Shown one piece after another: positions 4,334 through 62,612 of a stretch of DNA of 64,000 nt. The DNA comes from Candidatus Aminicenantes bacterium (GTDB taxonomy: Bacteria > Acidobacteriota > Aminicenantia > Aminicenantales > UBA8522). Where the stretch lies: the NCBI GenBank assembly GCA_963764885.1, contig CAVXUH010000014.1, positions 27,319 to 91,318 of the forward strand, given 5' to 3'. Each line of letters starts with the position of its first letter. The stretch's first letter is position 1. The translations under genes and the position numbers were made by a program. The notes under the pieces were generated by a model. It ran no database searches. It was not told the DNA's origin and was given only the letters and a program-made list of their open reading frames with translations.

Positions 4334-5893
4334 ATGTCGAGAAGACTGATCATCGGCCTGACGGCCGTGGGGATCGCCGCCCTCTCACCGGCCGCGGCCC
4401 AGCAGACCAGCAAGTCCCTTTCACTCCGGGACTGCATCCTCGTCGCCCTCAGGAACAACCTGGGCGTCCACGTCGCCGTCCTGAGCCCGGACCTGGCGGA
4501 AGCGAACCTTGCTTGGGCCAGGGAAAAGTTCCTGCCGCGCCTGGCGTTCGGCTACAATAACCAGAGGACAAGCTCGGCCTCGTATTCCTGGATCGATGCC
4601 GCCGGCAGCGTCAACACCCGGTACAACGATCTCTCGGCGTCCGTTTCCCAGGCGATCCCGACCGGGGGCAGCGTGTCGGCATCGCTGAGCGGATACAAGA
4701 GCCAATCCAACCTCAAATTCCAGACCATCAACCCCCGCTATGGCAGCACCCTGAGCCTCAGCCTGAGCCAGCCCCTGCTCAGGAATTTCGGCCCGAAGAT
4801 GAGCCGGCGAGACATCCTCATCTCGCAGAACAACCGGGACATATCGGAGGGCCAGCTCCAGGCCGTCCTGCTCGAGACCATCTACGACGTCGAGCAGTCC
4901 TACTGGAACCTTATCTATGCCATCGAGAACCTGTCGGTCAAAAAGCAGTCGCTGGACCTGGCCAGGGACCTGGTGTCGAAAAACAGGCGCGAGGTGGAGA
5001 TCGGCATGGTGGCCCCGATCGAGCTCCTGAGCGCCGAAGCCGAAGTGGCCACCCGGGAGGCCGACATCCTCCAGGCTGAGGTCGCCGTCGCCAACAGCGA
5101 GGACGCGCTCAAGACCGTCATCAACATCGCTGCCGAGGAAGGCGGCGGGCTCGTCACCATCGTGCCGTCCGACAAACCCAGCCAGGAACGGCGGACGGTC
5201 AGCGTCGAGGAGGCCCTCCAGGCGGCGGTCAACAACCGCCCCGACCTGCAGGTGACGAGGATCAGCCTAAAAAACAAGGAACTCAACGTGGCTTATGCCA
5301 GGAACCAGGTCCTTCCCGACTTGAATCTTGTCGCTTCCTATTGGAGCCCCGGCCTCTCGGGAACACAGCTTCTCTACCTCAACAACGACCCGCTGACCGA
5401 TACCGTCATCGGCACCCTGCCCTCGGGGGCCGGGGCGGCACTCAGCCGGGCCCTCGGCCTCAAATACAATAACTGGGCGGTCGGCGTCCAGCTCAACCTT
5501 CCGGTGGCCAGCCTGCTGACCCGGTCGCAGTTCGAGGCGTCGAGGATCAGCTACGAGCAGTCGCTGGCCGACCTGGCCGATCTCGAGCAGCGCATCTTCC
5601 TGGAGATCCGGACCGCGGTCCGGGCGGTCGAAACCGACTTCAAGCGGGTCATGGCCTACAAGGCCGCCCGCGAGCTCGCCGAAAGCAAGCTGACGGCCGA
5701 GGTGAAGAAGCTCACGGTCGGCCTGACGACAAACTACGTTGTCCTCCAGTATCAGCGCGACCTGGCCGATGCCAAGACGGCCGAGCTGCGGGCGATCATC
5801 GAGTACAACCTGGCGCTGGCCTATCTCGACAAGTCCCTGGGGACGAGCCTCCTCAGCAAGAGCATCGAGTTCGCGCCGTTCCGGACTTCCTAG
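4334..5893 (+). CDS. TolC-family outer-membrane efflux channel
   Basis: GAGGAGG RBS 7 nt before ATG 4334, then a signal peptide. Two tandem OEP repeats with TolC-like spacing: SLSLRDCILVALRNNLGV...; SVEEALQAAVNNRPDLQVTRISLKNKELNVAYARNQVLPDLNL. Confidence 0.85.
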   Translation: MSRRLIIGLTAVGIAALSPAAAQQTSKSLSLRDCILVALRNNLGVHVAVLSPDLAEANLAWAREKFLPRLAFGYNNQRTSSASYSWIDAAGSVNTRYNDLSASVSQAIPTGGSVSASLSGYKSQSNLKFQTINPRYGSTLSLSLSQPLLRNFGPKMSRRDILISQNNRDISEGQLQAVLLETIYDVEQSYWNLIYAIENLSVKKQSLDLARDLVSKNRREVEIGMVAPIELLSAEAEVATREADILQAEVAVANSEDALKTVINIAAEEGGGLVTIVPSDKPSQERRTVSVEEALQAAVNNRPDLQVTRISLKNKELNVAYARNQVLPDLNLVASYWSPGLSGTQLLYLNNDPLTDTVIGTLPSGAGAALSRALGLKYNNWAVGVQLNLPVASLLTRSQFEASRISYEQSLADLADLEQRIFLEIRTAVRAVETDFKRVMAYKAARELAESKLTAEVKKLTVGLTTNYVVLQYQRDLADAKTAELRAIIEYNLALAYLDKSLGTSLLSKSIEFAPFRTS

Positions 5894-8052
5894 CCCCGGA
5901 TTTCAACCTCGTAGATCGACCAGAAGTACTCGGGGCTGCCCGAGGTCAGGACGATCCGGATGAACCGGGCGGGTCGGCGGGAAAAGACGATCCCGTAGGA
6001 GATGTCGTTGGCCCGAAGGTACTCGCGGATGGGAAGAAGCGGGGTTTCGAGGCGGACGGCTTCGGTCCAAGTCAGCCCGTCCGAGGACACTTCCACCCGG
6101 CAGCCGCGCGGGTAGTCGAACAGGCTCGGCCCGAGCTTGAGGCGCAGGCCGGAGACGTTCCGCACTTTCCCAAGATCCAGGAGGAACTCGTCGCCGGGCT
6201 TCTGAAACTCGGTGCTCCAGCGCGTTTTCATATCCCCGTCAACGGCGCGCGGGGCGAACTCGTTGTGGACGCTTGCCCGGGCCTGCCAGCCCGTCGCCCG
6301 GGAGGTGGCATCCTGGAGAGGCGCGCCCGGCGAAGGCTCGCGCGGGGTCGGCGTCGGCGAAAATTCGTACACCACATCATCGCCCAGCCGGCCCGCCTCG
6401 CGCACCGTCGTGGCCAGGCGGGCAAGCTCCGAGGCCAGGAGGCTGCGCGATTCCGCGGTGAATTCGGCCTCGTGGACAACGAGGTAGCGGACGCCGAGAT
6501 CGGCGGCGTCCTGGATGTTCTGCGCCACGGGAGCCTCCCGCCAGCGTCGAAGCAACTCATCATAAACCGGCGGGAAGAACCCGCTGTAGCCGTTCACCAG
6601 GTTGTGCCAATGGACGGTCGAGTAGTAAACACGCGGGCATTCGACAAGCCCGATCCCGAACCTGGGCGGGGGCAGTGGTATCTCCAGTACGGCGCCGTCG
6701 TTGTGCTGGGCGGCCAGCCACCGGTAGACTTCGGGGACGTTCCCGCCCGGGGGGAAATCCTCCAGGGGAATGGGGAAGGAGGCATACTCGGCCAGGATCA
6801 GGAGCGGCAAAAGGCACGAGATCAAGACCCGGCCTTTTCCCCGGAACTTGGCGATGAGCTGGCGGGAGCCGAAAGCCGCCAGCACGGAGAGTCCGAACAT
6901 GACGAAAATATGGAACCGAGCGGGGACGCGCAACCCGTTAAACCCGGGCAGGAATCTGTAGAGAAGGATGTACGGGCCGTTCGGACCGAAGGTAAAAAGA
7001 AAAGCGAGGAGCGTGATCGTGCCGTAAATCATGGCCATGACGGGTGGGGACGGTTCTGGCCTTGGGGACGTTCCCCACGCCGGGGAACGTCCCCAACGGG
7101 GAGCGCGCCGGTTCGCTGCCAGGGAAACGAACCCGGCCGCTGCCAGGAGAATGGCCAGTGCCCCGGGGAAAAGGTGCTTTTCCGGAGTCTGAAAGCGCGC
7201 TGTGAGACCGCCGTAGGCGCGGTTGAAGGGCGGGGCCGCCAGAAAACTTGTCAGGCTGGCAGGCGTACCGACATTCCGGAAAAAGCCCATATCCCTTCCC
7301 ACCCTGACATATTGATAGGCGAACGGCCCGGCCAGAAAGAGGATGATCGCGGCGGCCGCCAGCATGTCCCGCCAGAATCGCCGGTCCAGGATTTTCCTCT
7401 GCGCGACCGCCATATACAGGATAATGAGGCCGGCGAAAAAAGCCAGGTAAAGGGCGTAATAGCCGTTGGCAAGCGCCTGAAGGCCCGCCGCCAGCGCAAA
7501 AAAGATAATCTCGCGGGGCCGGCCGGTCTCGAAATAGCGATGGATAAAGAGAAAGGCCAGCGGGATCCCCGCCGCCGTGACGATCTGAATGTGGACGAAA
7601 TGGGAAAACATGAACGGCGAGAAAGCGAAGATGATCCCCGCCACGACCGCGGCGAAACGGCTTCCTGTCAGATGGCGCGCCAACGCATACATCCCCAGCG
7701 CCGATGTCAGGTAGGCCAGGAGGAGCATGATGTTGTGGGCGAGCAGCGGGTTCGAGGAGAATACCCGGATGGGAAGCGATGCCAACGATTGCGTAAAAAG
7801 GTGCTCCGAATAGGCCAGGGTCCGCCCGTTCGGGAAGAAGATATTGGCGTCGAAATAATGAGCAACGTCCAAGCGGGTCATCTCCCGGACGTTCCAGGAC
7901 ATGATCCAGGACGTCAGCAGGCCGTCCCCCAGGTCCCTTACGCCCGTGCCGAGCCGGAGAACCAGCGGGTACGTCATGACGAGAGTCACGAGAAGGAAGA
8001 GCGCCGGCACGGTCAGCCGCGAACTCATCGATTTCTTAGGGCGTATCGGCAT
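5890..8052 (-). CDS. GT-C-fold membrane glycosyltransferase-like protein (GT39/ArnT/PMT-like polytopic N-half) fused to a C-terminal F5/8 type C (discoidin) carbohydrate-binding domain
   Basis: 720-aa ORF with ~12 predicted TM helices in the N-terminal 430 aa. The soluble C-terminus ends in a discoidin-like domain (NEFAPRAVDGDMKTRWST...LRLKLGPS...WSIYEVEIRG). The start is ATG 8052 or 8028 (uncertain). The gene overlaps the tolC-like stop by 4 nt convergently. Confidence 0.6.
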   Translation of the reverse strand: MPIRPKKSMSSRLTVPALFLLVTLVMTYPLVLRLGTGVRDLGDGLLTSWIMSWNVREMTRLDVAHYFDANIFFPNGRTLAYSEHLFTQSLASLPIRVFSSNPLLAHNIMLLLAYLTSALGMYALARHLTGSRFAAVVAGIIFAFSPFMFSHFVHIQIVTAAGIPLAFLFIHRYFETGRPREIIFFALAAGLQALANGYYALYLAFFAGLIILYMAVAQRKILDRRFWRDMLAAAAIILFLAGPFAYQYVRVGRDMGFFRNVGTPASLTSFLAAPPFNRAYGGLTARFQTPEKHLFPGALAILLAAAGFVSLAANRRAPRWGRSPAWGTSPRPEPSPPVMAMIYGTITLLAFLFTFGPNGPYILLYRFLPGFNGLRVPARFHIFVMFGLSVLAAFGSRQLIAKFRGKGRVLISCLLPLLILAEYASFPIPLEDFPPGGNVPEVYRWLAAQHNDGAVLEIPLPPPRFGIGLVECPRVYYSTVHWHNLVNGYSGFFPPVYDELLRRWREAPVAQNIQDAADLGVRYLVVHEAEFTAESRSLLASELARLATTVREAGRLGDDVVYEFSPTPTPREPSPGAPLQDATSRATGWQARASVHNEFAPRAVDGDMKTRWSTEFQKPGDEFLLDLGKVRNVSGLRLKLGPSLFDYPRGCRVEVSSDGLTWTEAVRLETPLLPIREYLRANDISYGIVFSRRPARFIRIVLTSGSPEYFWSIYEVEIRG
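7062..7096. repeat. 35-bp perfect inverted repeat (15-bp arms TTGGGGACGTTCCCC / GGGGAACGTCCCCAA, 5-nt spacer) embedded in-frame in a CDS
   Basis: Read directly: TTGGGGACGTTCCCC ACGCC GGGGAACGTCCCCAA. It lies inside the GT-C gene, in a Pro/Ser/Trp-rich inter-helix loop (..GRSPAWGTSPRPEPSPP..). Confidence 0.8.
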
Positions 8053-8083: not shown

Positions 8084-9559
8084 TCAATAGAATTCGCTAA
8101 GGTCGGGCAAGTCGCGGAACCCGGCTTTGCCCGCCTCGCGGCACATGATCTCCTTGAGCTCCTTGCGGATGGACCTTCGGGGCAGGTTCTCGACCGCCGG
8201 CTGGAGAAGCCGGGCGGCCTCTTCGCTGGCTCTCTCGGCGATCGTCTTTTTCCCGAGCGTGACCCAGCCGTCGTAAGTCTCGCGGTCGGTAACCTTCGGG
8301 AATGTGTGCTCGGCGCGATACCATTTCCTGGTGTGGGGCATCGTCAGGAACTGGCTCCCCGGCTCGAACCCCTCGAACAGGCCCAGGGCCAGGGGCTCGT
8401 CCCGCTGCGCGATGCCCTGGACCAGCCGGTAGGCCATGCCGCAGATTTCGTTGTCGATCACCAGCTTTTCCAGGCTCTGGGCGCTCTCGTAATCGAGCAT
8501 GCCCGGACCGGATACGATATTGACCCCCGCCAGGGCGGCAAGGACGGCGCCCATCCCGGTCTCAAAACCGGCTTGCGCGTCGTTGATCTTGGCGTCGCTC
8601 AGCGCCATGTAGGCGTGGGTCGGCAGCCCCAGCGACTTGCCGATCTGGACGTAGGCGGCGTCGATCATCATGGTCTCGATGGCGCCCATCGGGGTCGTGC
8701 CGTGGCGCATGTCGAAACTGGAGGGTGAGCCGCCGAAGATGACGGGAGCGCCCTTTTTGGCCAGCTGGGCGATGACAACTCCTGACAGGTTTTCCGCGAC
8801 GTGCTGGACGAGGGTGCCGGCGATCGTCACCGGCGAAGTCGCTCCGGTCATGCCCATTGAGATGAGCTCGGAAGGGACGCCCGCCCGGGCCGCGTCGATC
8901 AGCGACTGGGCCGTCAGGTTGCTCCACTTCAGGGGTGGGGAGGGGCAGGCGTCGAATACGGCCAGCGGCTTGTCCGCCAGCCGCTCGGCACCGCCGCGGA
9001 CAGCGGCCAGCATCTCGAGCATCGGCCGGAAGCCCTCGACCCGGAATGTCCCGGTGATGACCGGCTTGCTCGAAAAATGAAGCGCGAGGTAAAGGCGATA
9101 TATGTCCGCGATCTCGTCGGGGACATCCGAGCTGACCAGTCCGGTGCTCTGGAAGTGGAGATGGGGGAGGGCGTCGCTGAGCCGGACGAACCTCACAACA
9201 TCGGCGGTCACGGCCTTTCTGTGGGCCTGGACCGCGTGGTCAAGGAGGCTCACCGCCGCCGAGCCCGGGTCGAAATGGACCTCGTCCCGGCCGACGACGA
9301 ACCGCTGCCTTCCCGAGCGGTCATAGAGCCGGAAGACGGCGGGCGCCGCCGACACGCAATCATCGACCAGGTCGCCTTTGAGGAAGGCTCTCTTGCCCGT
9401 CCGGTCGATCTTCTGTCCGGCGCTCCACAAAAGCTCCATGGCCTCGGCGTTCTCGACGAACACCCCCTGTTTTTCAAGCAGGGCCAGGGCCTCGCCGACG
9501 ATCTTCTGGACGAAACGCTTGGTCAGCAGCTCGACCTTGGGTCGTCTGGGTTTGATCAT
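8084..9559 (-). CDS. MttB-superfamily (trimethylamine methyltransferase-like, non-pyrrolysine) substrate:corrinoid methyltransferase
   Basis: 491 aa from ATG 9559 with a GAAGGGG RBS. Strong MttB-family signatures along the whole length: ...LSDAKINDAQAGFETGMGAVLAALAGVNIVSGPGMLDYESAQSLEKLVIDNEICGM... There is no in-frame amber codon, so it is a non-Pyl member like the betaine/carnitine-type MtgB/MtcB/MtpB enzymes. Confidence 0.85.
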   Translation of the reverse strand: MIKPRRPKVELLTKRFVQKIVGEALALLEKQGVFVENAEAMELLWSAGQKIDRTGKRAFLKGDLVDDCVSAAPAVFRLYDRSGRQRFVVGRDEVHFDPGSAAVSLLDHAVQAHRKAVTADVVRFVRLSDALPHLHFQSTGLVSSDVPDEIADIYRLYLALHFSSKPVITGTFRVEGFRPMLEMLAAVRGGAERLADKPLAVFDACPSPPLKWSNLTAQSLIDAARAGVPSELISMGMTGATSPVTIAGTLVQHVAENLSGVVIAQLAKKGAPVIFGGSPSSFDMRHGTTPMGAIETMMIDAAYVQIGKSLGLPTHAYMALSDAKINDAQAGFETGMGAVLAALAGVNIVSGPGMLDYESAQSLEKLVIDNEICGMAYRLVQGIAQRDEPLALGLFEGFEPGSQFLTMPHTRKWYRAEHTFPKVTDRETYDGWVTLGKKTIAERASEEAARLLQPAVENLPRRSIRKELKEIMCREAGKAGFRDLPDLSEFY

Positions 9560-9579
9560 GGTGATTCCCCTTCTCCGGC

Positions 9580-10230
9580 CTATTTCCCGATGAGCGCGAG
9601 GGCCAGCCTGACCGCGGCCGGCGCGTTCTCGGCGTAGCCGTCGGCCCCGATCTCGGAGGCCCACCTCTGGGTGACGGGGGCGCCGCCCACCAGGATTTTG
9701 AAGCGCCCGGCCAGGTCCCGGGCTTTGAGAAGCTCCATGAACTTCTTCTGATTCAGCATCGTCGTCGTCAGCAGCGCCGAGAGGCAGATGAAGTCGGCTC
9801 CGGTCTCTTCGGCCTTTTCGATGAAACGCTCGAGCTTGACGTCGGCCCCCAGGTCCTGGACGTCGAACCCGTGGGCCTGCATCATCGAAGCCACGAGATT
9901 CTTGCCGATATCGTGGATGTCGCCCTCGATCGTCCCGATGACCACCCGCCCCTTAACGGGCGCGTCGAGGTGGGCCTTTTTAAGCTCGGGCTGCAGGACC
10001 GTCATGGCCGCCTTCATGCCCTCGGCCGAGCTGATGAGCTCGGGCAGAAAGTATTCTCCCTTTTCCCAGAGCTCACCCACTTTCTGAAGACCGGGGATGT
10101 AGCCTTTCTCGATCACTTCGAGGAGGTCGAGTCCGCCGGCGACGGCCTGTTCGGCCAGCGACCGGGCGTCCTCCTTCCGGCCGTCGATGATGGCCTGGGC
10201 CATCTTCGCCATCATGTCCGATGTGCTCAT
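9580..10230 (-). CDS. cobalamin-binding corrinoid protein (MtbC/MttC-like)
   Basis: 216 aa from ATG 10230. N-terminal B12-binding-cap helical domain, then a Rossmann B12-binding domain carrying the DxHxxG motif (GTIEGDIHDIGKNLV). It lies 20 nt upstream of the mttB-like gene. Confidence 0.85.
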   Translation of the reverse strand: MSTSDMMAKMAQAIIDGRKEDARSLAEQAVAGGLDLLEVIEKGYIPGLQKVGELWEKGEYFLPELISSAEGMKAAMTVLQPELKKAHLDAPVKGRVVIGTIEGDIHDIGKNLVASMMQAHGFDVQDLGADVKLERFIEKAEETGADFICLSALLTTTMLNQKKFMELLKARDLAGRFKILVGGAPVTQRWASEIGADGYAENAPAAVRLALALIGK

Positions 10231-10264
10231 CAGCGCTCCTTTCCCGCCCCCGGCCCGGCCGGCG

Positions 10265-12028
10265 TCAGGTCCATGGTCCGAACTCGAGAGCGTCGATAAA
10301 TTGGTCCTGGAATCCCGGGTCCGAGGCCAGCGAGGTGAAACGTACCCTCTCAACCAGGGCCTCGATCCTTTCCCGCTCGCCCTTGGACTGGAGCAGCAGC
10401 CGGGCCCCCGCCAAGGATGAATTCCCGATGAAGACTAGCTTTTCAGGGTCGATGCTGGGCAGCAACCCCAGGGCCAGGCTGTTGGGGATATTGAGGTAGC
10501 TGCCGAAAGCGCCGGCGATAAAGATGCCGCTGAGGTCGCCGGCGGTCAAACCGTTTTGGGCGAGCAGGATCCTCACGCCGGACTTGATGGCGGCGCAGGC
10601 GAGCTGGAGCTGCCGGATGTCGTCCTGGGCCAGCGTCAGGGTGCCCGAAACCCGGATTTTCTTGTCCGCGTTCCGGACGGCCCCTCCGGGCGAGATTTCC
10701 CCGCGGGCCAGGGCGATGGCTGCGAGATCGATCAGTCCCGTCCCGCAGACGCCCGTTTCCGCCTGTCCCCCGATGACGGCGAGCTCGATCGTCCCGAGGC
10801 CCCCGGCCGCCCGATAGACTGCCCCCGGCAGGGCGGGCATGCCGCAGCTGATGTTCATGCCTTCGAACGCCGGTCCGGCCGCGGTCGAGGTCGTAATCAG
10901 TTCACCCCCCGCCTTGAGCACGAGTTCGCCGTTTGTCCCCAGGTCGATGAGCAGGAAATGCCCTTCGTTCCCGGCCATCCGGGAGGCCAGCAGGCCGGAG
11001 GAAATGTCGCCGCCGACAAAGCTCCCGATGTTGGGGGAAAAATAGACCGGAGCGCGAGGGTTGACCGCCAGCCCGGCCTCGGCGGCCGGGCTGACCGGGG
11101 CCCGAGAAAAGACCGCATGGTAGGGTGCCGTGGCCAGGGTGTCGACGGGGACCCCCAGGAGAAGATGCGACATGACGGTGTTCCCTGAGATCACGGCCTC
11201 GCGGACGGATTCCGGCCGCGCCCCGTTCCGATCGAGCAGGCGCCCGATCATCCCGTTCAAGTCCCCCAGGACGAGGCCCCTGAGCTCGGCCGCCTTCCCC
11301 GGATTCCCATAGGCGTAAGTGATCCGAGATATGACATCGGCCCCGCGCCGGACCTGGCTGTTGAGGGCCGCTTCGGTGTCGACGGTTCTTCCCGTATCCA
11401 GATCCAGGAGATCCATGACCAGGGTCGTCGTGCCCACATCCACGGCCAGGCCGAAGTTCCGGTCGAGGGCGCTCCCGGGCTCCACGGCGATGACCCGGCT
11501 GTCGAAATGGACCGCCACGGTCACGCGGGAATCGCCTTTTTCGACGGCCCCAGGCAATTCCTTGAGCAGGCCGGCCGATATCGTCAAGCCTTTGAGCCCG
11601 AGACCGTCTGTGAGCAGGTCGAACAGGGATCGCGGGGAGGAGATGCTAGGCTGCGCCAGCTCGAGCTCGTAGAGCCTGACGGCCGGGTCGGGAGTCACGA
11701 CCGAACGGGGGATTTCGGGCAAGATAGGGACGGGCCGGACGGTAAAGGCGGCCGGGACGTTGATCTCCAGGTCGCCCGCCACCGTGAACTGGCAGGCCAG
11801 CCGGAAGTTCTCTCCCAGGCTTTTCTGCAGGATCCAGGCCGCCTCTTTCCTGCCGGATGGGGGAAGCCTGCCGCTGAGCACCTCGACGAAACATTTGCCG
11901 CAGAGGCCCCGGCGGTCGCAGTAGACGCTTATGGGGATCCCCGCCGCCTGTAGCCTATCCGAAAGCCGGTCTCCGTCCTCGGCCCGGATTTCGAGGTCGT
12001 GGGAGGGAACCTTGATCGTCCGGCTCAT
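10265..12028 (-). CDS. RamA-like ATP-dependent reductive activase of corrinoid proteins ([2Fe-2S] ferredoxin domain + ASKHA/DUF4445 domain)
   Basis: 587 aa. N-terminal plant-type 2Fe-2S ferredoxin fold with the Cys cluster (CDRRGLCGKCFVEV...C). The remaining ~480 aa match the ASKHA-fold corrinoid activation domain (COG3894). It sits immediately upstream of the corrinoid protein. Confidence 0.8.
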   Translation of the reverse strand: MSRTIKVPSHDLEIRAEDGDRLSDRLQAAGIPISVYCDRRGLCGKCFVEVLSGRLPPSGRKEAAWILQKSLGENFRLACQFTVAGDLEINVPAAFTVRPVPILPEIPRSVVTPDPAVRLYELELAQPSISSPRSLFDLLTDGLGLKGLTISAGLLKELPGAVEKGDSRVTVAVHFDSRVIAVEPGSALDRNFGLAVDVGTTTLVMDLLDLDTGRTVDTEAALNSQVRRGADVISRITYAYGNPGKAAELRGLVLGDLNGMIGRLLDRNGARPESVREAVISGNTVMSHLLLGVPVDTLATAPYHAVFSRAPVSPAAEAGLAVNPRAPVYFSPNIGSFVGGDISSGLLASRMAGNEGHFLLIDLGTNGELVLKAGGELITTSTAAGPAFEGMNISCGMPALPGAVYRAAGGLGTIELAVIGGQAETGVCGTGLIDLAAIALARGEISPGGAVRNADKKIRVSGTLTLAQDDIRQLQLACAAIKSGVRILLAQNGLTAGDLSGIFIAGAFGSYLNIPNSLALGLLPSIDPEKLVFIGNSSLAGARLLLQSKGERERIEALVERVRFTSLASDPGFQDQFIDALEFGPWT

Positions 12029-12110
12029 GAGTTGAAAACCAGGTATAGGTTATATGTTTCGCTCCTGCTTGGGAAGCGAAATTTTCATCAATGTCAGCGG
12101 CTCTGATAGA

Positions 12111-12785
12111 ATGAATCTCGGGAAAATAGGGATGAGCGCAGGAAACAAGAGCCGGCCCGGGCGGTGGTATTGGCGGGAAGTCCTCTACGATGTGGTCCTG
12201 GAGCGCCCCCTCACCGGCATCCGCAAGGCGGTCAGCGAGTTCGTGAAGGAGGCCGGCCTTTTTCCCCTGATCGATATCTGCTGCGGTCCGGGGAACCAGC
12301 TGGGCCGGCTGGCCGCGGCGGGTCGCGGGACGGGCTCAATGTCAGTGGGCCTGGACATCGACTTCAAGGCGCTGCGCTATGCCGCCGCGCGACGGCCGGC
12401 GGCCTCCTTTGTCTGCGGCGACGCGACAAACCCTCCCTTCCGGCCGGGCGCCTTCAAAGGGGCGCTCCTGTCTTTTGCCCTGCATGAGCAGGAACCGGAC
12501 ATCAGACGCCGGATCCTCGGGGCGGCCCGGGAAGCTCTCGCGCCCGGGGGCCGCCTCGTCCTGGTCGATTTCGAGGTCCCGTGGAACTCCGCTGCGCGCC
12601 TGGCTTACGCTTACACCTCGGTCATCGAACGGCTCGCGGGCAGGGACCACCTCCGGCGGAACCGCGATTTCTTCCGGCGGGGGGGCCTCCGGGCGCTTCT
12701 CGCCGAAAACGACTTCAAAGAGATCCGGCGGCGCGACGTCGCTGCCGGCACCTGCTCCATCGTCGTCGCGGAACCAGGGACTTAG
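12111..12785 (+). CDS. class I SAM-dependent methyltransferase
   Basis: SAM-binding motif I (DICCGPGNQ) and post-I acidic residue (GLDID), with typical Methyltransf_11/25 spacing. The start at ATG 12111 is uncertain (alternatively 12132). Divergent from the ramA-like gene across an AT-richer intergenic region. Confidence 0.7.
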   Translation: MNLGKIGMSAGNKSRPGRWYWREVLYDVVLERPLTGIRKAVSEFVKEAGLFPLIDICCGPGNQLGRLAAAGRGTGSMSVGLDIDFKALRYAAARRPAASFVCGDATNPPFRPGAFKGALLSFALHEQEPDIRRRILGAAREALAPGGRLVLVDFEVPWNSAARLAYAYTSVIERLAGRDHLRRNRDFFRRGGLRALLAENDFKEIRRRDVAAGTCSIVVAEPGT

Positions 12786-12851
12786 CCGGATTCATTTCTG
12801 TTGCACAGGAAGCCGAGATTTCAGTATGTTATCCTTATCGAGAGGAGAAGG

Positions 12852-14634
12852 CATGCGAGAGACGATCCCCCAACACTTTATCCACCTCACGGATTCCTTC
12901 AAGAAGCCGGCCCTGTTCCTCTATAAGAAAGACGGCCGCTACACGCCCGTGTCGACCGACGAGGTCCGCCGGACCGTCACCCGCATTGCCCTGGGACTCC
13001 GGGACCTGGGGGTCCGCCGTGAAGATAAAGTTGTCCTGCTGGCCGAGAACGGCCCGTGGTGGGTGATGGCCGATTATGCGATCACCAGCCTGGGAGCGGT
13101 CACCGTCCCGATCTACACCTCGCTCGTGCCCGACCAGATCAAGTACATCATTAACGACTCCGACGCCAAGCTGGTCCTCGTTTCCGATAAGGAGCTCTGG
13201 GGCAAGGTCGCGCTCGTCAAGGACGGCCTGCCCGGGGTCCGCCATTTCGTGACCTTCGAGGCGGCCCCTCCGGAGCCCGGCGTCCTGACGCTGGCCCGGA
13301 TCGAGGAGCAGGGCGCGAAGGTCGACCGCGAGAACCCCTCGCTCTTTGTCCAGACAGCGGTGTCTGTCCTGCCGGAGGACGTCGCCTCGATCATCTACAC
13401 CTCGGGCACGACCGGCGTCCCCAAGGGCGTGATGCTCACCCACGCCAATTTCGTCAGCAACATCGAGACCCTGGCCTCGATCATCGAGTTCGGCCCCTCC
13501 GACATCGACCTCTCGTTCCTGCCGCTCTCTCACGTCCTGGAGCGCCTGGGAACGGTGGCCTTTCTATCGCGCGGCGTGACCATGGCCTACGCGGAGAGCG
13601 TCGAGACGGTCGCCGAGAACCTCATCGAGGTCAAGCCGACGATGATGATCAGCGTGCCGCGGCTGTTCGAGAAGATCTACGTCCGGGTCATGGATACGAT
13701 CCTCGGCGGCTCCTTCCTGAAAAAGAAGATCTTCCACTGGGCGCTGGGCGTTGGCCGGGAATGCGGCAACCGCCGCCTCGGCAACCGGCCGGTCCCGGCC
13801 TCCCTCGAGCGCCGGCTGCGCCTCGCCCACAAGCTCGTATTCTCCAAGATCCTGGAGAAAACGGGCGGCCGCGTCCGGTTCTTCGTCTCGGGCGGCGCGC
13901 CCCTGGCCAAGGACATCGCCGAGTTCTTTTACGCGCTCGGCCTGGTCGTTCTGGAGGGATACGGGCTGACCGAGACGTCGCCGGTCATCGCCGTCAACAC
14001 CTTCGCCAACCTGAGGTTCGGCACCGTGGGCAAACCGCTGCCCTGCATGGACGTCAAGATCTTTCCCGACGGGGAGATCGTCGTCAAGGGACCAAACGTG
14101 ATGAAAGGATACTACAAGAAGCCGGAAGAGACCCGGGAGGTCCTGGTCGACGGCTGGCTCCACACAGGCGATATCGGCTACCTGGACGTCGACGGGTTCC
14201 TGGTCATCACCGACAGGAAGAAAGACCTGATCGTGACCTCGGGCGGGAAGAACGTCGCTCCCCAGCCGATCGAAAACCTGGTCAAGCAGAGCCCCTACAT
14301 CCTGAACGCTATCGTGCTGGGGAGCCGCCGCAAGTTCGTCTCGGCCCTCGTTGTACCGGACTTCGAGAAGCTCGAGGACTACGCCAAGGGCCGCGGGATT
14401 TCCTACGTCAACCGCCGGGACCTCATCCAGAACGAGGCCATCCTGCGCTTTCTCGAGGCCGAGGTGGACCGCAGCACGCCGAACCTCGCTCCCTACGAAA
14501 AGATAAAAAAGATCGCTCTCCTCGAACGCGATTTCGACATCGAAAAAGGCGAGATCACGCCCACACTCAAGGTCAGGCGAAACATCGTCGAGGAGAAGTT
14601 CAAGGATGTCATCGATTCGATCTACAGGGAATGA
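12852..14634 (+). CDS. long-chain-fatty-acid--CoA ligase (AMP-dependent synthetase/ligase, FadD-like)
   Basis: GAGGAGAAGG RBS before ATG 12852. AMP-binding core motifs IIYTSGTTGVPKGVMLTH and GYGLTE are present, with a C-terminal ...TPTLKVRRNIVEEKF. The upstream part of ORF-track 12379..14634 is GC read-through. Confidence 0.9.
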
Positions 14635-14681
14635 ACAGGCGGCCCTGCCGGAGCCGCGCCCGTGCTGGAAAAGGAGACCCG

Positions 14682-15663
14682 ATGACCCCGCCCGTCCCGC
14701 TGAGGAAGTTAGGCAAGTCCGACCTCGAAGTCTCTCCGATCGGCCTCGGCTGCTGGCAGTTTTCCCAGGGCAAAGGGCTGGTCGGCGCCTATTGGGCGAA
14801 GATCACTCAAACGGAGATCGCGGAAATCGTCCGGATCAGCCTCGAAGGCGGCCTCAACTGGTTCGACACGGCCGAGTCCTACGGCGGCGGCCAATCGGAG
14901 CGGGAGCTGGCGCGGGCGCTCGGTTCCCTCGGGGTCAGGCCCCGGGATGTTCTCGTCGCCACCAAGTGGCGGCCTTTCCTGCGGACGGCCCGGTCGATCC
15001 TGGGCACGATCGACGCCCGGATTGCCGCGCTCGGCGGTTATCCCATCGCCCTCCACCAGATCCACCAGCCGTACTCGCTGTCCTCAGTCCGGGCCCAGAT
15101 GAACGCCATGGCCGACCTCGTCGAGGCCGGCAAGATCGGTCATGTCGGGGTGAGCAATTTTTCGGCGAAGAAGATGCGCACTGGCGCACACGGAGCTTGG
15201 CCGTCGCGGCATTGCCCTGGTGTCGAACCAGGTCCGGTACAGCCTGCTCGACCGGAGGATCGAGAAAAACGGCATCCTCGAGACGGCCCGTGAGCTCGGG
15301 GTCTCGATCATCAGCTATTCACCGCTCGCCCAGGGCCTCCTGACCGGCAAGTTCCACGAACAGCCCGGGCTCGTTCGGTCGAAACCGGGATACAGGAAGT
15401 ACCTGAAGGCCTTCCGGCCTGCGGGCCTGGAAGCGACCTTCCCTCTGATCAAGGCCGTCCGCGAGCAGGCCGGGAAATACGGACGGACGCCGGGCCAGGT
15501 CGCCCTCAACTGGCTGATCAATGTTCATGGCGATCTGGTCGTCGCCATCCCCGGGGCGATGCGCGCGACGCAGGCCCGGGAGAACGCCGGCGCCCTAAGT
15601 TTCAGCCTGTCCAGGGAAGACATCGATTTCCTGGGCTGCGTCTCGGCGGGTATCAAGTCCTAG
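14682..15663 (+). CDS. aldo/keto reductase; frame shifts near 15175-15195
   Basis: AAGGAGA RBS before ATG 14682. AKR motifs are present (GLGCWQF, FDTAESYGGG, KIGHVGVSNF). After ..NFSAKKMR the frame derails. The +1 frame continues ..AHTELGRRGIALVSNQVRYSLLDRRIE..ISYSPLAQGLLTGK.. to the stop at 15663, consistent with a single-base indel. Confidence 0.8.
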
Positions 15664-20657: not shown

Positions 20658-20765
20658 GCCTGCCTCCCGCCGCTATTCTAATATGAACGCACCCGTCGGG
20701 GAAACACCCCGCTCCTTATTGCCCAAAGGGCGCGCGCGGGATAAACTAATCCGGGAGTGAAGCCC

Positions 20766-22790
20766 ATGAAAAAGACTGCGAGTCCGGGGGCCGGCCGAGG
20801 CCTCGGGCTGTCGATTCTGGCCGCCGGTGCGCTGGTCAGCATCTCGGTCTCGATGCTGCCGGGCGATACCGGCGCCGACCGCTGGTACATCATCAAGATC
20901 GCCGGCAACCCGGCCGGCTATGTGCACGAGGTTGTTGAGGAGAAAGCGGCGCCCGAGGCCAAGGCGAAGTCGGCCCCCCAGGCCAAGACGGCACCCGCGC
21001 CGCGCCTGCTGGTCACGACATCCGACATGCGGCTCGTCCTCAACAGGCTGGGGAGCCGGATCGAGCTCCGTTTCCTTTCTTCGGCGGACGAGTCGGCCGA
21101 AGGCCGGCTTCTCCGGACCGAGTATGTCATGCTGGCGTCGAACCAGTCGACGAAATCCACGGCCGTCGTGGATGACGGGAAGATCGAAGTGACCAGCGAG
21201 GCCGCCGGCAAGGCCTACACGAACGTCCTGACGTTCACGGGCACGCTGTTCGGCCCGGAGGCCATCCGGCGAGGTTGCGCCCAGGCGCTCCGGAAACCCG
21301 GCGACCGGATCACCATCCAGACGTTTGTTCCCGAGGCCAATCTGGTGGGCAACCTGACGCGGGTTGTCCTCAGCCGGGATACCGTCATTCTCGAGGGCCG
21401 ACCCTTCCCGGCGGTCAAGGTCGAGGAGACCCTCGAGGGGATGCCCATCAAGCGCACAGGCTGGCTCGACCTCGACGGAAACCTCCTTAAGCAGGAGGAA
21501 CCCGGGCCGTTCGGGCTCATGGAGGTCGCGCGGGCGGAGAAGGATGCCGCCATGGCCGCGGCGGCCGGAGTGGAGCTTCCCGCCGAGATCTATCAGAAAT
21601 CGATCGTCCGGACGAATATCCGCCTGCCCCGGTATGCACCCATCGACCGCCTCAAGCTCAGGCTCACCCACCGGGACCCGGCGCTCGGCTGGCCCGATTT
21701 CAAGGGCGGAAACCAGACAGTCATCGAAAAGACGGAAAAACAGCTGGTCCTCGAGATGAGGCGCCCGGCCGCGCCGAAGGACCTGCGCTTTCCCGCGGCG
21801 GCGGCCGATGAGGCTACCCGGCAATATCTCGAGCCCAACGCCTATGTCCAGTCGGACGACGCGGAGATCCGCCAGCTCGCCCGGAAGCTGGCGGGCCGGG
21901 AAAAGGATGCTTTCCAGGCCGTCCTCGCCATGGAACGCTGGGTCGCGGAGCACATGACCTTCGACCTGGGGATCGTTTTTGCGCCGGCCGTCGAAGTCTT
22001 CCAGAGCCGGCGCGGGACATGCGTCGGCTATGCCACGATCCTGGCCACGCTGGCCCGGGCCGCCGGCGTTCCCTCTCGGGTGGCGATGGGGTACGTCTAT
22101 GCCCAGGGGATGTTCGGCGGCCACGCCTGGGCGGAGATCTTCTCCGGCAGGGAGTGGATCCCGGTTGACGCGGCCATCGTCAACGCCGGTGTGGCGGACG
22201 CTACGCACGTGAGGGTCATGGCGTCGTCCCTCGCCGGCGGGCCGGGGGAGATGAGCATCGGGCCGGCCCAGCAGATCTTCGGCCAGGTGGATATCTCCAT
22301 CCTGGAATACGATACGGATAAGAGGACGACGGTCGTGCCGCCGGACGCCAAGCCCTACACGGTCGAAGGGAACCGGTACGTCAACCCGTGGCTGAGCATC
22401 ACGCTGGCCAAGCCGCCGGATTTCGTCTTCGCCAAGCTCGACGCCATCTGGCCGGATCCGACGGTCGTGGGCCTGATGGGGCCGAACGGCGAAAAAGTCT
22501 CGCTCGAAGAGCAGCCCGTCTATCCCTGGGAGTCCGCCGGCAGGGCCGCGGCGGAGAGGGTACGCAGACTCGTACCCAAACCGAAGAGCGGTCAAAGCAG
22601 CCTGGGCGAAAGGCTGGCTGATCGATGGACTGAGGTGTTGCGGTCCACCGACGGCAGAACGGCAGCGGCGGCTTTCGCCAGGGACCAGGCCACGTGCGAT
22701 CTTTTGGTGTTGAAAGTCGAGGGCCCGGACGCGGAAAGGATCCTGCGCCAGATCGCCGAGAGCCTCCGGCTCGGCTCTCCTTATGACTGA
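20766..22790 (+). CDS. secreted transglutaminase-like (Cys-His-Asp papain-fold) domain protein
   Basis: GGGAG RBS before ATG 20766 and a signal peptide. The C-terminal half carries a transglutaminase-core motif around the catalytic Cys (FQSRRGTCVGYATILATLARAAGVPSRVAMGY) and a GGHAWAEI His motif. The minus-strand ORF 20673..22823 is a shadow. Confidence 0.75.
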   Translation: MKKTASPGAGRGLGLSILAAGALVSISVSMLPGDTGADRWYIIKIAGNPAGYVHEVVEEKAAPEAKAKSAPQAKTAPAPRLLVTTSDMRLVLNRLGSRIELRFLSSADESAEGRLLRTEYVMLASNQSTKSTAVVDDGKIEVTSEAAGKAYTNVLTFTGTLFGPEAIRRGCAQALRKPGDRITIQTFVPEANLVGNLTRVVLSRDTVILEGRPFPAVKVEETLEGMPIKRTGWLDLDGNLLKQEEPGPFGLMEVARAEKDAAMAAAAGVELPAEIYQKSIVRTNIRLPRYAPIDRLKLRLTHRDPALGWPDFKGGNQTVIEKTEKQLVLEMRRPAAPKDLRFPAAAADEATRQYLEPNAYVQSDDAEIRQLARKLAGREKDAFQAVLAMERWVAEHMTFDLGIVFAPAVEVFQSRRGTCVGYATILATLARAAGVPSRVAMGYVYAQGMFGGHAWAEIFSGREWIPVDAAIVNAGVADATHVRVMASSLAGGPGEMSIGPAQQIFGQVDISILEYDTDKRTTVVPPDAKPYTVEGNRYVNPWLSITLAKPPDFVFAKLDAIWPDPTVVGLMGPNGEKVSLEEQPVYPWESAGRAAAERVRRLVPKPKSGQSSLGERLADRWTEVLRSTDGRTAAAAFARDQATCDLLVLKVEGPDAERILRQIAESLRLGSPYD

Positions 22791-22969
22791 CACCACGCGC
22801 ACTATTCGAGGGACACTGACCACAATTTAGACAATGACAATTCGTGTCCCCCGATTTCCCGACGAGGTCGGGAGATCCGAGGCTTGACCGGCCAGCTCGA
22901 ATCGGAGTTAAATGAGCTCGCTCTCGCTGGATTGTGTCCCTTAATAGATCAAGGGGATCGGAATTCAAC

Positions 22970-23821
22970 ATGAAAAAAGCCGACGCACCTGAAAACAAAA
23001 CGCGCAGCAAGTTCATAAGGAGCGAGGGAGACCGGCTGAGGCGTGTCATCGTCTGCGCGCCGCGCCGGGAGTACTTCCGCGTGGACGATCTCGAGGCGCA
23101 CAATATCGAGGCCGCGGCGGACCCGCTCAAGGCGCGGCAACAGCACGCGGAGCTTCGGGCCGCGCTCCGGGAGGCGGGCGCTAGGGTCATCGACATCCCC
23201 GAGCTCGAAGGTCATCCGAACTCGGTCTTCGCCCGCGATGCCTGCCTGGTGACGCCCGCGGGCTATATCAAGCTCAGGATGGGCCTGCCGACGCGGCGCG
23301 GCGAAGAGGCCTGGCTGGCCGCGGCGGTCGAATCGCGAGGAGTCCCCTGCGCAGGGGCGATCGATCCGCCCGGGACCGTCGAGGGCGGGGATGTGATCCT
23401 GGCCGGCCGGGTCGCTTTTGTCGGGCAGTCGGCGAGGACCAATACGAACGGGGTGCGGCAGCTGTCCCGGCGGCTCGGGAAAATGGGTATCGAGACCCGG
23501 ACGCTCAGGCTGCCGGCCTCGCGCTTGCATATCGGCGGAGAGATGAGCCTCGCCGGACCGAACACCGTGCTCTGCTACCGGGGGCTGTTCCCCGGCGGTT
23601 TTTTTGAGGGATTCGAGGCCCTCGAGATCCCCGAGTCCGTCCAGGCGAGCCCCAATATCATCTCCCTCGGCCTGGGCCGGGTCATGGTCGAAAAAGATAA
23701 CGCGGCTGCGATCAAAGCTCTGGTCAAGGCCGGCTTCGCCGTCCGTGCCCTCGACCTCTCCGAGTTCGTCAAGGGCCGGGGCGGCCCGAGCTGCCTCATC
23801 ATGCCGCTGGAGCGCGGCTGA
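22970..23821 (+). CDS. dimethylarginine dimethylaminohydrolase (DDAH) / amidinotransferase-superfamily hydrolase
   Basis: 283 aa. Pentein fold with a C-terminal catalytic Cys in ..GRGGPSCLIMPLER, characteristic of the DDAH/arginine-deiminase superfamily. Confidence 0.75.
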   Translation: MKKADAPENKTRSKFIRSEGDRLRRVIVCAPRREYFRVDDLEAHNIEAAADPLKARQQHAELRAALREAGARVIDIPELEGHPNSVFARDACLVTPAGYIKLRMGLPTRRGEEAWLAAAVESRGVPCAGAIDPPGTVEGGDVILAGRVAFVGQSARTNTNGVRQLSRRLGKMGIETRTLRLPASRLHIGGEMSLAGPNTVLCYRGLFPGGFFEGFEALEIPESVQASPNIISLGLGRVMVEKDNAAAIKALVKAGFAVRALDLSEFVKGRGGPSCLIMPLERG

Positions 23822-28149: not shown

Positions 28150-29545
28150 TCAACGCGGGACGGTGCGGCACCGCTCGAAGGCTCCAGCGTGTCCCGGCTC
28201 CGCTCGCTTTTTCCAGAAGAAATAGGCGGGCAGGCCGGCCAGGATCATGGCCAGGCCGAGCGCCGAGTTCCGGGGCTCGGACAACAGGCGGTTCATGAAT
28301 ACCGCCAGGTTCACTCCGATAAATATAATGGGCACGACCGGATAGCCCCAGGCCCGGTAGGGCCGCGGAATATCCGGGCGCCGGATCCGGAGCACGATCG
28401 ACCGCCGCTCCCGTGGCTGCGAAAAACAGCACGAGCGCGAAGATCACGTATTCGAAAAGGGCCTGGTAGGTTCCCGTCAAGCACAGAAATCCCGACCAGA
28501 CCGCCTGGGCGATGATGGCCCGGCCGGGCACATGGTAGCGCGGGTGGATCCGGCCCATCTTCTTGAAAAACAGCCCGTCTTCGGACATCGCATAGTAGAC
28601 CCGCGGGCCGTAAAGTATCGTCGCGCTCAGGCAGCCGAAGATCGAAGCCAGGATCGCCGCGGCGATCACCGAGCCCGATCGCCGTTCCGAACATGGTCGT
28701 TGCCGCCAGCTCTCCGATGCGGACGACCCCGCTCATGTCCGCGACTGGGACGGCGGCGAGATAGAGCGCATTCATCAATACGTAGACCGCCGTGACCGCC
28801 GCGGTCCCCAGGAACAGGCTCAAGGGAATCGTGGTCTGCGGCGTCTTGATCTCGCCGGCGGCGCAGTTCACCGAATACCAGCCGTCATAAGTCCAGAGCG
28901 CCGCAAAGATCGCCAGGCCGAAGGATGCCGAGAGACACGCCGCCGTCAAAACTCATGAGCGCGGCCGGGGTGGGGGAGACCGGCCTTTTTGCCCGAGGAG
29001 CCAGCCGGCGACCAGGAACACCACCAGGCCGCCGACCCGGATGACAGTGAACACGTTCTGGACCAGGATCCCACCGCGGATACCGAAATAATTGACCGCC
29101 GACAGCGCCGCGATCAGGACCAGGGCGACGACCTGGCCCCACGCTGATGGTGCACGGATAGCTCGCCGACCGGAATGCTCAGGATCGCGGCGCTGATTGC
29201 GAGAGCCCGGGCAGGAAATAGCCCAGGTATTCCGAAAATCCGACGGCCAGGGCCGCGATCCCACCTCCCATGATCATCCAGAAAAACGCCCAGCCGAACA
29301 GAAAGCCGGTCAAGTCGCCATAGGCCTCCTTGAGATACACGAACTGGCCGCCGGCCCGGGGAAACATGGCGCGCCAGCTCGCCGAAAGAAAGGGCGCCGA
29401 AAAGGGTGATCAGTCCGCCGGCCGCCCATACGAGAAGGACGGCACCCGGCGACCGCACGAGCTCGACGATGATGCCCGTCGTCATGAAGATGCCCGAGCC
29501 GATGACGCTCCCCATCACGAGGAGCGTCGCGTCCCAAAGAGTCAT
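28150..29545 (-). pseudogene. APC-superfamily amino-acid permease, reading frame broken at least 5-6 times (pseudogene or assembly indels)
   Basis: Consecutive minus-strand ORF-track ORFs (29114..29572, 29179..29367, 28953..29264, 28311..28949, 28013..28669, 28150..28395) together spell a ~12-TM APC permease: MTLWDATLLVMGSVIGSGIFMTTG.. / ..FPRAGGQFVYLKEAYGDLTGF.. / ..NYFGIRGG.. / ..GEIKTPQTTIPLSL.. / ..YGPRVYYAMSEDGLFF.. Confidence 0.6.
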
Positions 29546-29747
29546 GACGCGCTCGAAGCCCGGGCTTCTCATTCATTCCTAGCACCGTCCAAGTTTTCGC
29601 GATTATAAAGGAACTCCTGCGCAAGTTCAAATTCACGCTCGCATCGATGAGACCTACGGCGTTCTCTTCAGACCGTTCTTTATTCCTGACGCCATTTTTC
29701 AAACCGCCAACATCATCCGTCCCGGAGAAAATTAGCTTTATATCTTT

Positions 29748-29765
29748 TTTATTATCAATTATTTA
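29748..29765 (+). repeat. AT-rich 18-mer TTTATTATCAATTATTTA (copy 2 of 2)
   Basis: Identical to 23917-23934. It lies in the AT-rich parA upstream region, immediately 5' of a TATAAT hexamer and the 20-bp palindrome. Confidence 0.8.
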
Positions 29766-29768
29766 TAT

Positions 29769-29788
29769 AATGTCGGCATGCCGACATT
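29769..29788. promoter_or_regulatory. perfect 20-bp palindrome AATGTCGGCATGCCGACATT overlapping a TATAAT hexamer, ~145 nt upstream of parA (candidate operator or centromere-like site)
   Basis: Read directly: tatAATGTCGGCATGCCGACATTctc, with the TATAAT at 29766-29771. It is not the canonical parS (TGTTNCACGTGAAACA). Confidence 0.5.
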
Positions 29789-29931
29789 CTCAGACTCCGA
29801 CACCCGTCACGTTTCTTTTATTCTTTACTTTGCCCGGCGCGTTGCCCCCGTCTGCACCTTGCGCCTCTTCCATCGATCAGAAGTCCCGTTCGATATTTTT
29901 TCTTGCATTTTACTTTTTCCTCCATTATCCT

Positions 29932-39848: not shown

Positions 39849-39933
39849 TGGGCAGAGCGGGACTCGAACCCGCACTCCTTACGCAGGAACTAGGTCCTAA
39901 GCCTAGCGCGTCTGCCAGTTCCGCCACCTGCCC
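39849..39933 (-). tRNA. tRNA-Leu (anticodon UAG)
   Basis: Reverse complement folds as a class II tRNA: GGGCAGG-TG-GCG(GAACTGGCAGA)CGC-G-CTAGG(CTTAGGA)CCTAG-long variable arm TTCCTGCGTAAGGAGT-GCGGG(TTCGAGT)CCCGC-TCTGCCC-A. Anticodon TAG, 7-bp acceptor with one G-U pair, CCA not encoded. Boundaries +/-1. Confidence 0.9.

Positions 39934-61103: not shown

Positions 61104-62608
<1,505 letters not shown>

Positions 62609-62612
<4 letters not shown>

Follow-up and report, generated by a model that had tools for sequence, protein, structure and literature searches.

Three adjacent minus-strand genes in a 64-kb stretch of DNA from a Candidatus Aminicenantes bacterium (contig CAVXUH010000014.1, G+C ~63%; referred to here, at its full length, as the window) encode an MttB-family methyltransferase, its corrinoid protein and a reductive activase, and our preferred reading, to which we give a probability of about 0.55, is that this trio supplies the donor side of a split methionine synthase resembling MetH, with a donor other than glycine betaine and with homocysteine as the acceptor. 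In the mechanism we propose, the TIM-barrel MttB-family enzyme would bind a methylated donor from which the Co(I) of the corrinoid protein would take the methyl group, and the resulting methyl-Co(III) protein would pass this on to an acceptor methyltransferase whose gene lies in another part of the genome, with the RACo-type activase using ATP and a 2Fe-2S cluster to re-reduce corrinoid that had become inactive as Co(II). The acceptor would probably be a stand-alone homocysteine S-methyltransferase homologous to the homocysteine domain of MetH, the MttB barrel would take the place of the folate-binding barrel of MetH, and the donor would be an imported, non-betaine methylated compound. RACo may, in the lineage of the window, play the role that a MetH-type S-adenosylmethionine (SAM)-dependent activation protein has in other lineages.

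The trio consists of a non-pyrrolysine MttB-superfamily methyltransferase of 491 amino acids (positions 8084–9559; predicted to be a methyl donor:corrinoid-protein Co-methyltransferase), a cognate corrinoid protein of 216 amino acids (9580–10230) and a RACo-type ATP-dependent reductive activase of 587 amino acids (10265–12028), which together form one operon of an Aminicenantes bacterium. An earlier first-pass annotation of the sequence had described these minus-strand activase, corrinoid and mttB-like genes with gaps of 34 and 20 nucleotides, and had read them as the half of a cobalamin-dependent methyl-transfer system which demethylates the substrate; the gaps computed from the coordinates are the same, and the Pfam and TIGRFAM matches agree with roles as the methyltransferase of the substrate side, its corrinoid protein and their reductive activase. 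It had also named two things which might undo its view of the 8084–9559 product, a position outside the MttB superfamily and an overlooked in-frame UAG codon, and neither was found. The protein matches PF06253 (MTTB) at 292.1 bits (cutoff 25) over residues 4–474 of 491, and so lies inside the superfamily, and its score of 391.9 bits with the pyrrolysine MttB equivalog model TIGR02369 is under the cutoff of 525. When compared with PDB sequences using phmmer, the best match was Desulfitobacterium hafniense MtgB (2qne / 9yce; 229 bits, E 8e-67), with pyrrolysine MttB (7xcl) at 194 bits (E 3e-56), and in MAFFT alignments it shares 33% identity with MtgB and 31% with MttB. The similarity to 2qne, 9yce and 7xcl spans ~440 residues (E 1e-56 to 1e-67), and a TIM-barrel fold for the homolog is implied by this resemblance to the solved MtgB and MttB structures; an AlphaFold2 model, computed from an alignment of 15 sequences, reached a mean predicted local distance difference test score of 45, too low for it to be of use.

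The substrate pocket of the MttB homolog departs from that of MtgB at each of the positions which contact glycine betaine. In MtgB, Y97 and F356 provide cation–pi contacts and R312 and H348 bind the carboxylate (PMC13080624, published in 2026); substitutions at all four residues severely impair activity, with R312L and H348E essentially inactive and the conservative Y97F and F356Y changes tolerated, and R312 is conserved in the enzymes for carnitine (MtcB), proline betaine (MtpB), phosphocholine (MthB) and gamma-butyrobetaine (MtyB) (PMC13080624). These four residues align to S100, H315, S350 and E358 in the window protein, and amongst 88 orthologs of at least 58% identity the first three are invariant (88/88) and E358 is found in 81. 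As all four glycine-betaine-contacting residues are replaced, the window protein is, as judged from the alignment, not an MtgB, and by the same comparison the acid-binding arginine common to the characterised quaternary-amine members is absent from it. The conserved His/Glu pair suggests another kind of ligand. The view in the first-pass annotation that sequence alone does not reveal the substrate is upheld.

Homologs of the window protein are numerous, with a protein search returning more than 7,000 matches at E ≤1e-30. The best 120 full-length matches are 66–90% identical and those with names come from Aminicenantes metagenome-assembled genomes (MAGs); the 90%-identity cluster of the window protein contains OGD22321.1 from Candidatus Aminicenantes bacterium RBG_16_63_16. 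When each species was represented by a single genome, a scan gave at least 549 stretches with an MttB relative, and the best 80 of these are 60–90% identical, with 44 of the 80 named as Aminicenantes or Acidobacteriota and most of the remainder being generically labelled MAGs with syntenic flanks. The MttB homolog is a core, vertically conserved Aminicenantes gene and not an island.

We clustered the open reading frames (ORFs) in 76 non-redundant orthologous loci with flanks of up to 10 kb on each side (loci are numbered here with the prefix L). The corrinoid gene adjoins the MttB gene in 60/76 loci, and in 33/76 a MetH-activation-like protein of ~200 amino acids with an RFSPGYG motif (PF02965, 30.8–40.9 bits) is encoded between or just after the corrinoid and MttB genes. 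RACo was found in 29–34 of the 76 and an APC-family permease in 8–11. A stand-alone homocysteine S-methyltransferase (PF02574; 295 amino acids, 220.8 bits, with the GSNC and GGCCGT zinc motifs both intact) is encoded within 10 kb in 18/76 loci and within four genes in 12/76, and a pterin-binding gene in 0/76; all 85 of the MttB-clade loci which were fetched (L001–L085, some of which are redundant) were likewise without a pterin-binding gene inside 10 kb. For 46 well-flanked loci from this last set, 17 have RACo only, 17 the activation protein only, three have both and nine neither (Fisher p = 9e-4, which treats the loci as independent and is uncorrected for relatedness). As RACo and the PF02965 protein are complementary across the loci, this suggests that they are alternative, interchangeable corrinoid reactivation systems, and that the lineage of the window uses RACo.

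We also worked in the reverse direction by using an alignment of the homocysteine methyltransferase to scan metagenome contigs. This recovered permease–RACo–homocysteine methyltransferase–corrinoid protein–MttB operons in which MttB is 63–67% identical to the window protein, and, in distant lineages, the arrangements corrinoid protein–homocysteine methyltransferase–activation protein–MttB or homocysteine methyltransferase–MttB–activation protein (MttB 45–53% identical). The same homocysteine methyltransferase family is followed in three further loci (L121, L127 and L164) by a PF00809 pterin-binding protein (93.7 bits), and in L164 a corrinoid gene comes next, which is the ordinary split-MetH layout. 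A neighbour-joining tree with MtgB, pyrrolysine MttB and paralogs as its outgroups placed the window clade and the distant MttBs linked to the homocysteine methyltransferase in one monophyletic group in 50/50 bootstraps, with MtgB, pyrrolysine MttB and the Aminicenantes paralogs outside.

The set of modules found in relatives of the trio, a homocysteine domain, a B12 domain with its cap, an activation domain and an MttB barrel, mirrors MetH with an exchange of one barrel, and the most economical reading is that of a non-folate donor with the methyl discharged to homocysteine. The comparative data point to this sink and away from tetrahydrofolate, with the evidence being drawn from genes outside the window. 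An acceptor gene which is not linked to the trio is not unusual, since mtgB, mtgC and mtgD are scattered in the genome of Ruegeria pomeroyi (PMC12478193). More tentatively, and with somewhat less than an even chance of being right, we would extend the reading to the clade as a whole as the donor module of a methionine synthase which needs cobalamin but not folate, for which the imported donor is neither a carboxylated nor a phosphorylated betaine and the activating partner may be either RACo, with ATP, or the MetH-type SAM-dependent protein. Simple methylamines, methylated amino acids and sulfonium compounds are examples of what the donor in such a system might be, with His315 and Glu358 replacing the Arg/aromatic pocket of the betaine enzymes.

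A number of observations weigh against homocysteine as the acceptor. The 64-kb window contains no homolog of the homocysteine methyltransferase or of the PF02965 activation protein, and in the orthologous loci the former is found within 10 kb in just 18 of 76. The homocysteine methyltransferase family also occurs without MttB, where it is seen after acs clusters (it follows the acs RACo in L109, L111 and L112), with a permease alone, or among housekeeping genes, and it may be a general methionine-synthesis module which is only sometimes co-located with MttB. The distant MttBs linked to it were collected through a search with the homocysteine methyltransferase itself and are a biased sample, and the relatedness of loci left uncorrected in the Fisher test tempers the argument for interchangeable activation. 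In ~10 orthologous loci a Wood-Ljungdahl acs cluster has the corrinoid–MttB pair at its 3' end, and such a position would fit a flow of methyl groups to CFeSP or tetrahydrofolate equally well. Finally, our literature search found no biochemical work on any member of the clade.

The explanation that known enzymes would suggest is catabolic demethylation of a quaternary amine in the manner of MtgBCA, with the methyl of a betaine-type osmolyte passing through an unlinked MtgA/MtqA-type methyltransferase to tetrahydrofolate for energy and carbon. The characterised non-pyrrolysine MttB members are all quaternary-amine methyltransferases (PMC13080624), MtgB is the best PDB match of the window protein, acceptor genes can be unlinked (PMC12478193), and some of the orthologs adjoin the Wood-Ljungdahl cluster or transporters. 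We nonetheless regard it as unlikely, with 0/4 of the glycine betaine contacts kept (the widely conserved R312 is among those lost), a homocysteine methyltransferase in 18 loci set against no pterin-binding gene within 10 kb in 85, and a clade that has 33% identity to MtgB and stands apart from it in the tree. The acs-linked loci raise a different question, namely whether the corrinoid protein might exchange methyl groups with CFeSP/acetyl-CoA synthase rather than homocysteine, and so feed the Wood-Ljungdahl pathway or draw from it. These ~10 loci (L017, L024, L028, L033, L034, L039, L044, L046, L069 and L074, in the upstream 10 kb) have the gene order CooS–AcsB–CooC–AcsD–AcsC–RACo–homocysteine methyltransferase–(methyltransferase)–corrinoid protein–MttB, and no AcsE-like pterin-binding gene was found in their fetched flanks. 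However, there are no acs genes near the trio in the window or in its close relatives, permease–RACo–homocysteine methyltransferase–corrinoid protein–MttB operons exist without them, and the RACo of the acs-linked loci is a different paralog, with the window RACo 31–34% identical to the acs-linked RACos of other Aminicenantes and 44–53% identical to those of the permease operons (which themselves share just 30–34% with the acs-cluster RACo of L028), and we consider a Wood-Ljungdahl role for the trio to be quite improbable. We give only a very slight chance to the suggestion that the MttB barrel itself binds methyl-tetrahydrofolate or another pterin as a non-homologous replacement for the pterin-binding domain of MetH or AcsE, even though it would account for modules which match those of MetH one for one with MttB in place of the missing pterin domain, for acs-linked loci without AcsE in the fetched flank, and for the loss of the betaine-binding residues. 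To our knowledge no MttB-family member binds pterins, and the APC permease which is operonic in several loci suggests an imported donor. We also note that the organisms in which a comparable cluster was described by Williams et al. (2022; PMC9324843) encode a normal MetH as well.

A last alternative concerns the genes divergent from the trio on the plus strand, a class I SAM-dependent methyltransferase (12132–12785, alternative start 12054; PF13649, PF08241), a FadD11-like AMP-binding ligase (~12826–14634) and an aldo/keto reductase (14682–15663), which might be functional partners that set a different substrate or sink. The block is found beside the trio in L001, L002/3 and L006, a 37%-identical homolog of the methyltransferase (E 2e-41) is the divergent neighbour of the corrinoid gene in two other loci (L038 and L048) and lies not far from it in L041, and the 12132–12785 product has a weak match (40.1 bits, cutoff 180) to the model for CpaM, a corrinoid protein-associated methyltransferase (NF043040). 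A partnership is nevertheless very unlikely, as the ligase and reductase co-occur with the trio only where MttB identity is at least 74% and are missing from the other ~70 orthologous loci, the relatives of the methyltransferase score 38–55 bits with the CpaM model, comparable to generic UbiE-type matches, and a 41%-identical homolog in L167 has no adjacent corrinoid genes (a literature search on CpaM found nothing relevant). The order OEP / RACo, methyltransferase–ligase is moreover kept in L166, where the corrinoid–MttB pair and the membrane protein are missing. Given this, and the limitation of the block to close relatives, the linkage most likely reflects lineage synteny and not a partnership, and the idea in the first-pass annotation that the divergent operon was a sign of a different sink or substrate is unsupported. 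A functional link between the trio and the ligase or reductase is unlikely, and one with the SAM methyltransferase is conceivable but weak. The identities given earlier to the three genes hold, but the reductase gene is not intact, being broken into two frames by a 1-nucleotide insertion near position 15181 (L001 and L002 have an intact gene of 326 amino acids), and the bidirectional terminator proposed for the end of this operon was not found directly past 15663, where a consensus scan was empty and the sequence has no clear hairpin and T-tract.

The position of a permease elsewhere in the window also bears on this block. A frameshifted APC-family permease (28204–29578, minus strand) was detected by tblastn with the L079 permease as five segments in different frames (E 2e-75; the L079-type permease itself matches PF13520 at 192 bits), and it adjoins ParA and ParB; it is the ortholog of the permease whose gene comes immediately before RACo in the operons of other Aminicenantes. 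In L079, L081 and L086 a ParB–ParA–permease block leads directly into RACo–(homocysteine methyltransferase)–corrinoid protein–MttB, and as these loci lack any spacing between the two, the ~16 kb which separates permease and RACo in the window, and which includes the methyltransferase–ligase–reductase genes, looks like a rearrangement or inserted segment. The permease at 28204–29578 may be a former or unlinked transporter of the methyl-transfer system. The permease, ParA and ParB genes of the window (28204–31555, where the G+C is lower at ~0.595) each align to their orthologs as several pieces in different frames, and other genes which look truncated include CysS (61338–62612) and Hsp70 (53604–55184); the frameshifts in the partition genes suggest indel sequencing errors over decay.

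Returning to the pyrrolysine position of the MttB homolog, the mttB-like ORF is open from stop to stop (8084–9664) with no internal stops, and Pyl334 of 7xcl is aligned by phmmer with Leu320 of the window protein. The codon of this residue is CUG (8600–8602, minus strand) and occupies the place of the UAG of a true mttB gene in both the phmmer alignment to 7xcl and the Rfam PYLIS_3 alignment, and 79 of the 88 orthologs likewise have Leu here and the other nine Met, so that the non-pyrrolysine status given to the protein earlier is borne out. It should be noted that PYLIS_3 reaches its gathering score at 8503–8602 on the minus strand (40.5 bits, threshold 38) with a match that starts exactly at the CUG codon, and that the first three bases of the model (UAG) are placed opposite CUG in the alignment. 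Similar matches are found in three distant non-pyrrolysine homologs (L143 11137–11236, L146 11057–11156 and L149 11039–11138). We rejected the window match as a genuine pyrrolysine insertion element because the codon is CUG, the model itself includes few pairs and the match tracks conserved codons; it looks like conserved coding sequence and not an RNA element, and indicates that the PYLIS_3 model is capable of firing on non-pyrrolysine genes.

Pyrrolysine systems do occur close to some of the orthologs. In L028 (11509–18279), and likewise in L046 and L069, a complete pyrrolysine system comes after the non-pyrrolysine MttB ortholog, made up of the C-terminal domain of pylS (TIGR02367, 336.8 bits), pylB, pylC, pylD, a tRNA-Pyl (CUA), another corrinoid protein and a gene for a dimethylamine methyltransferase which is interrupted by an in-frame TAG. 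Between the homocysteine methyltransferase and corrinoid genes of L028 (8344–9150), and at the same place in L046 and L069, there is also a class I SAM methyltransferase, but it is different from that of the window, with which tblastn found no homology. In L004/L012 (1–4558; CP070825.1) a second, 30%-identical MttB paralog lies 5 kb from the ortholog, with a corrinoid protein of its own and with a PF02965-like protein and a transporter of the SNF family alongside. The Aminicenantes hold several MttB systems with MetH-type activation proteins.

The corrinoid protein of the trio has a cap domain and a Rossmann B12-binding domain (PF02607 B12-binding_2, 79.5 bits; PF02310 B12-binding, 101.3 bits) with the DxHxxG motif present as GDIHDIG in the translation. 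It belongs to the methyltransferase cognate corrinoid protein family TIGR02370 (230.7 bits, cutoff 215.3), while its score of 224 bits with the MtgC model NF047995 is under the cutoff of 310. All of the domains of the activase are above their Pfam cutoffs, with an N-terminal [2Fe-2S] Fer2 domain (PF00111) followed by RACo_linker (PF17650), Raco_middle (PF17651) and RACo_C_ter (PF14574, an ASKHA ATPase), and the phosphate motifs DVGTTT and DLGTNGE can be read in the translation. RamA has a C-terminal ferredoxin domain with two [4Fe-4S] clusters, and in the window protein the N-terminal 2Fe-2S domain is the sole Fe-S domain found. As the architecture is RACo/AcsV-like and the score with the RamA model TIGR04270 is 137.7 bits (cutoff 500), the earlier description of this gene as a RamA-type activase is right as regards reductive activation but not as regards the type. 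The score with the AcsV model NF040756 is 373.8 bits (cutoff 800), and from the adjacency of the two genes the window RACo is probably dedicated to the small corrinoid protein and not to CFeSP.

Among the other neighbours, the gene 31 nucleotides beyond the mttB-like gene (5890–8052, minus strand) codes for a membrane protein in which the F5/8 type C (discoidin) domain is solid; the GT-C part of the earlier GT-C/discoidin description is weakly based, with the PF10131 match reaching only 18.4 bits (cutoff 26.4). No pterin-binding (PF00809) or URO-D-type methyltransferase was found in 38 window ORFs (10 + 28) scanned with Pfam, and tblastn of the 64-kb window with two pterin-binding proteins gave no match, in agreement with the earlier observation that a corrinoid:tetrahydrofolate methyltransferase is missing from the window. 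Further along the plus strand, 9–12 kb from the trio, are genes for a transglutaminase-like protein and a DDAH/arginine deiminase-family protein (20757–23821), and in L005 and L010 such genes directly adjoin the trio together with a PEBP gene. DDAH-type enzymes free methylamines from methylarginines. We considered the DDAH-family protein (22934–23821) as a supplier of the substrate and set this aside, as synteny in L005 and L010 amounts to proximity only. The sole tRNA gene identified in the window with Rfam is at 39849–39933 (minus strand).

Metagenomic studies routinely equate non-pyrrolysine MttB homologs with MtgB, and so with the use of glycine betaine (e.g. PMC6081815). As the clade lacks the glycine betaine site, such MtgB annotations are probably wrong for a major sediment and subsurface lineage, and the clade is large, spanning the genomes of hundreds of Aminicenantes species and metagenomic proteins that number in the thousands. 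If the methyl group does go to homocysteine, then this would be another way of making methionine, would give the MttB superfamily a new class of substrate, and would provide a case in which two non-homologous corrinoid repair systems have been swapped within one operon. The window is one more, incomplete, member of the clade, and the interest lies in the clade itself with its changed pocket and MetH-type partners.

Of the known systems, MtgB/MtgC/MtgA of D. hafniense (2QNE, 9YCE) resembles the trio in having a non-pyrrolysine MttB methyltransferase beside a cognate corrinoid protein, Leu at the pyrrolysine position and the need for a COG3894-type reductive activase, but differs in sequence (33% identity), in the pocket (Y97/R312/H348/F356 against S/H/S/E), and in its MtgA, for which no gene of the type is adjacent in the ortholog loci, the partner in relatives being a homocysteine S-methyltransferase. 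Pyrrolysine MttB (7XCL) shares the superfamily, a loop at ~345–365 of equal length and a coding sequence past the pyrrolysine position similar enough to produce the PYLIS_3 match, and is set apart by its UAG where the window gene has CUG (Leu320), by the sub-cutoff TIGR02369 score and by 31% identity. The activase has the four-domain architecture (2Fe-2S, linker, middle and ASKHA) of RACo, the reductive activator of CoFeSP of Carboxydothermus, and of AcsV, with the differences being its sub-cutoff AcsV score and its 31–34% identity to Aminicenantes acs-cluster RACos. The split methionine synthase/MtgBCDE system of Ruegeria pomeroyi and Phaeobacter inhibens (PMC12478193) is similar in that a stand-alone corrinoid protein is shared by an MttB-family donor methyltransferase and a likewise stand-alone homocysteine-binding module, with a RamA-like activase and dispersed genes, but in these bacteria glycine betaine is the donor, the proposed path of the methyl group is via the pterin-binding MtgD and tetrahydrofolate, the corrinoid protein is of another lineage, and the hosts are aerobic Alphaproteobacteria.

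The closest parallel is with Ca. Electryoneota and 'diverse bacteria', in which Williams et al. (PMC9324843) described a cluster of a non-pyrrolysine MtgB/MttB homolog, a homocysteine S-methyltransferase, a corrinoid protein and an activation protein, placed the MttB homolog in an uncharacterised clade closer to MttB than to MtgB, and hypothesised corrinoid-dependent methionine synthesis with an unknown donor, a proposal which rests on genomes. The clade has thus already been noticed once in the literature from its genome context. Like the Electryoneota homolog, the window protein belongs to an MttB clade apart from MtgB and MttB and has a corrinoid protein beside it, orthologs of the window genes are found in exactly the same four-gene arrangement, and the window protein groups with the MttBs linked to homocysteine methyltransferases (the match being one of gene content as described in that paper and not of its sequences). 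The window differs in having neither a homocysteine methyltransferase nor a PF02965 protein nearby, and RACo instead. Our analysis of gene context reaches the same idea independently, and extends it to the Aminicenantes, to a variant which contains RACo, and to an active-site signature.

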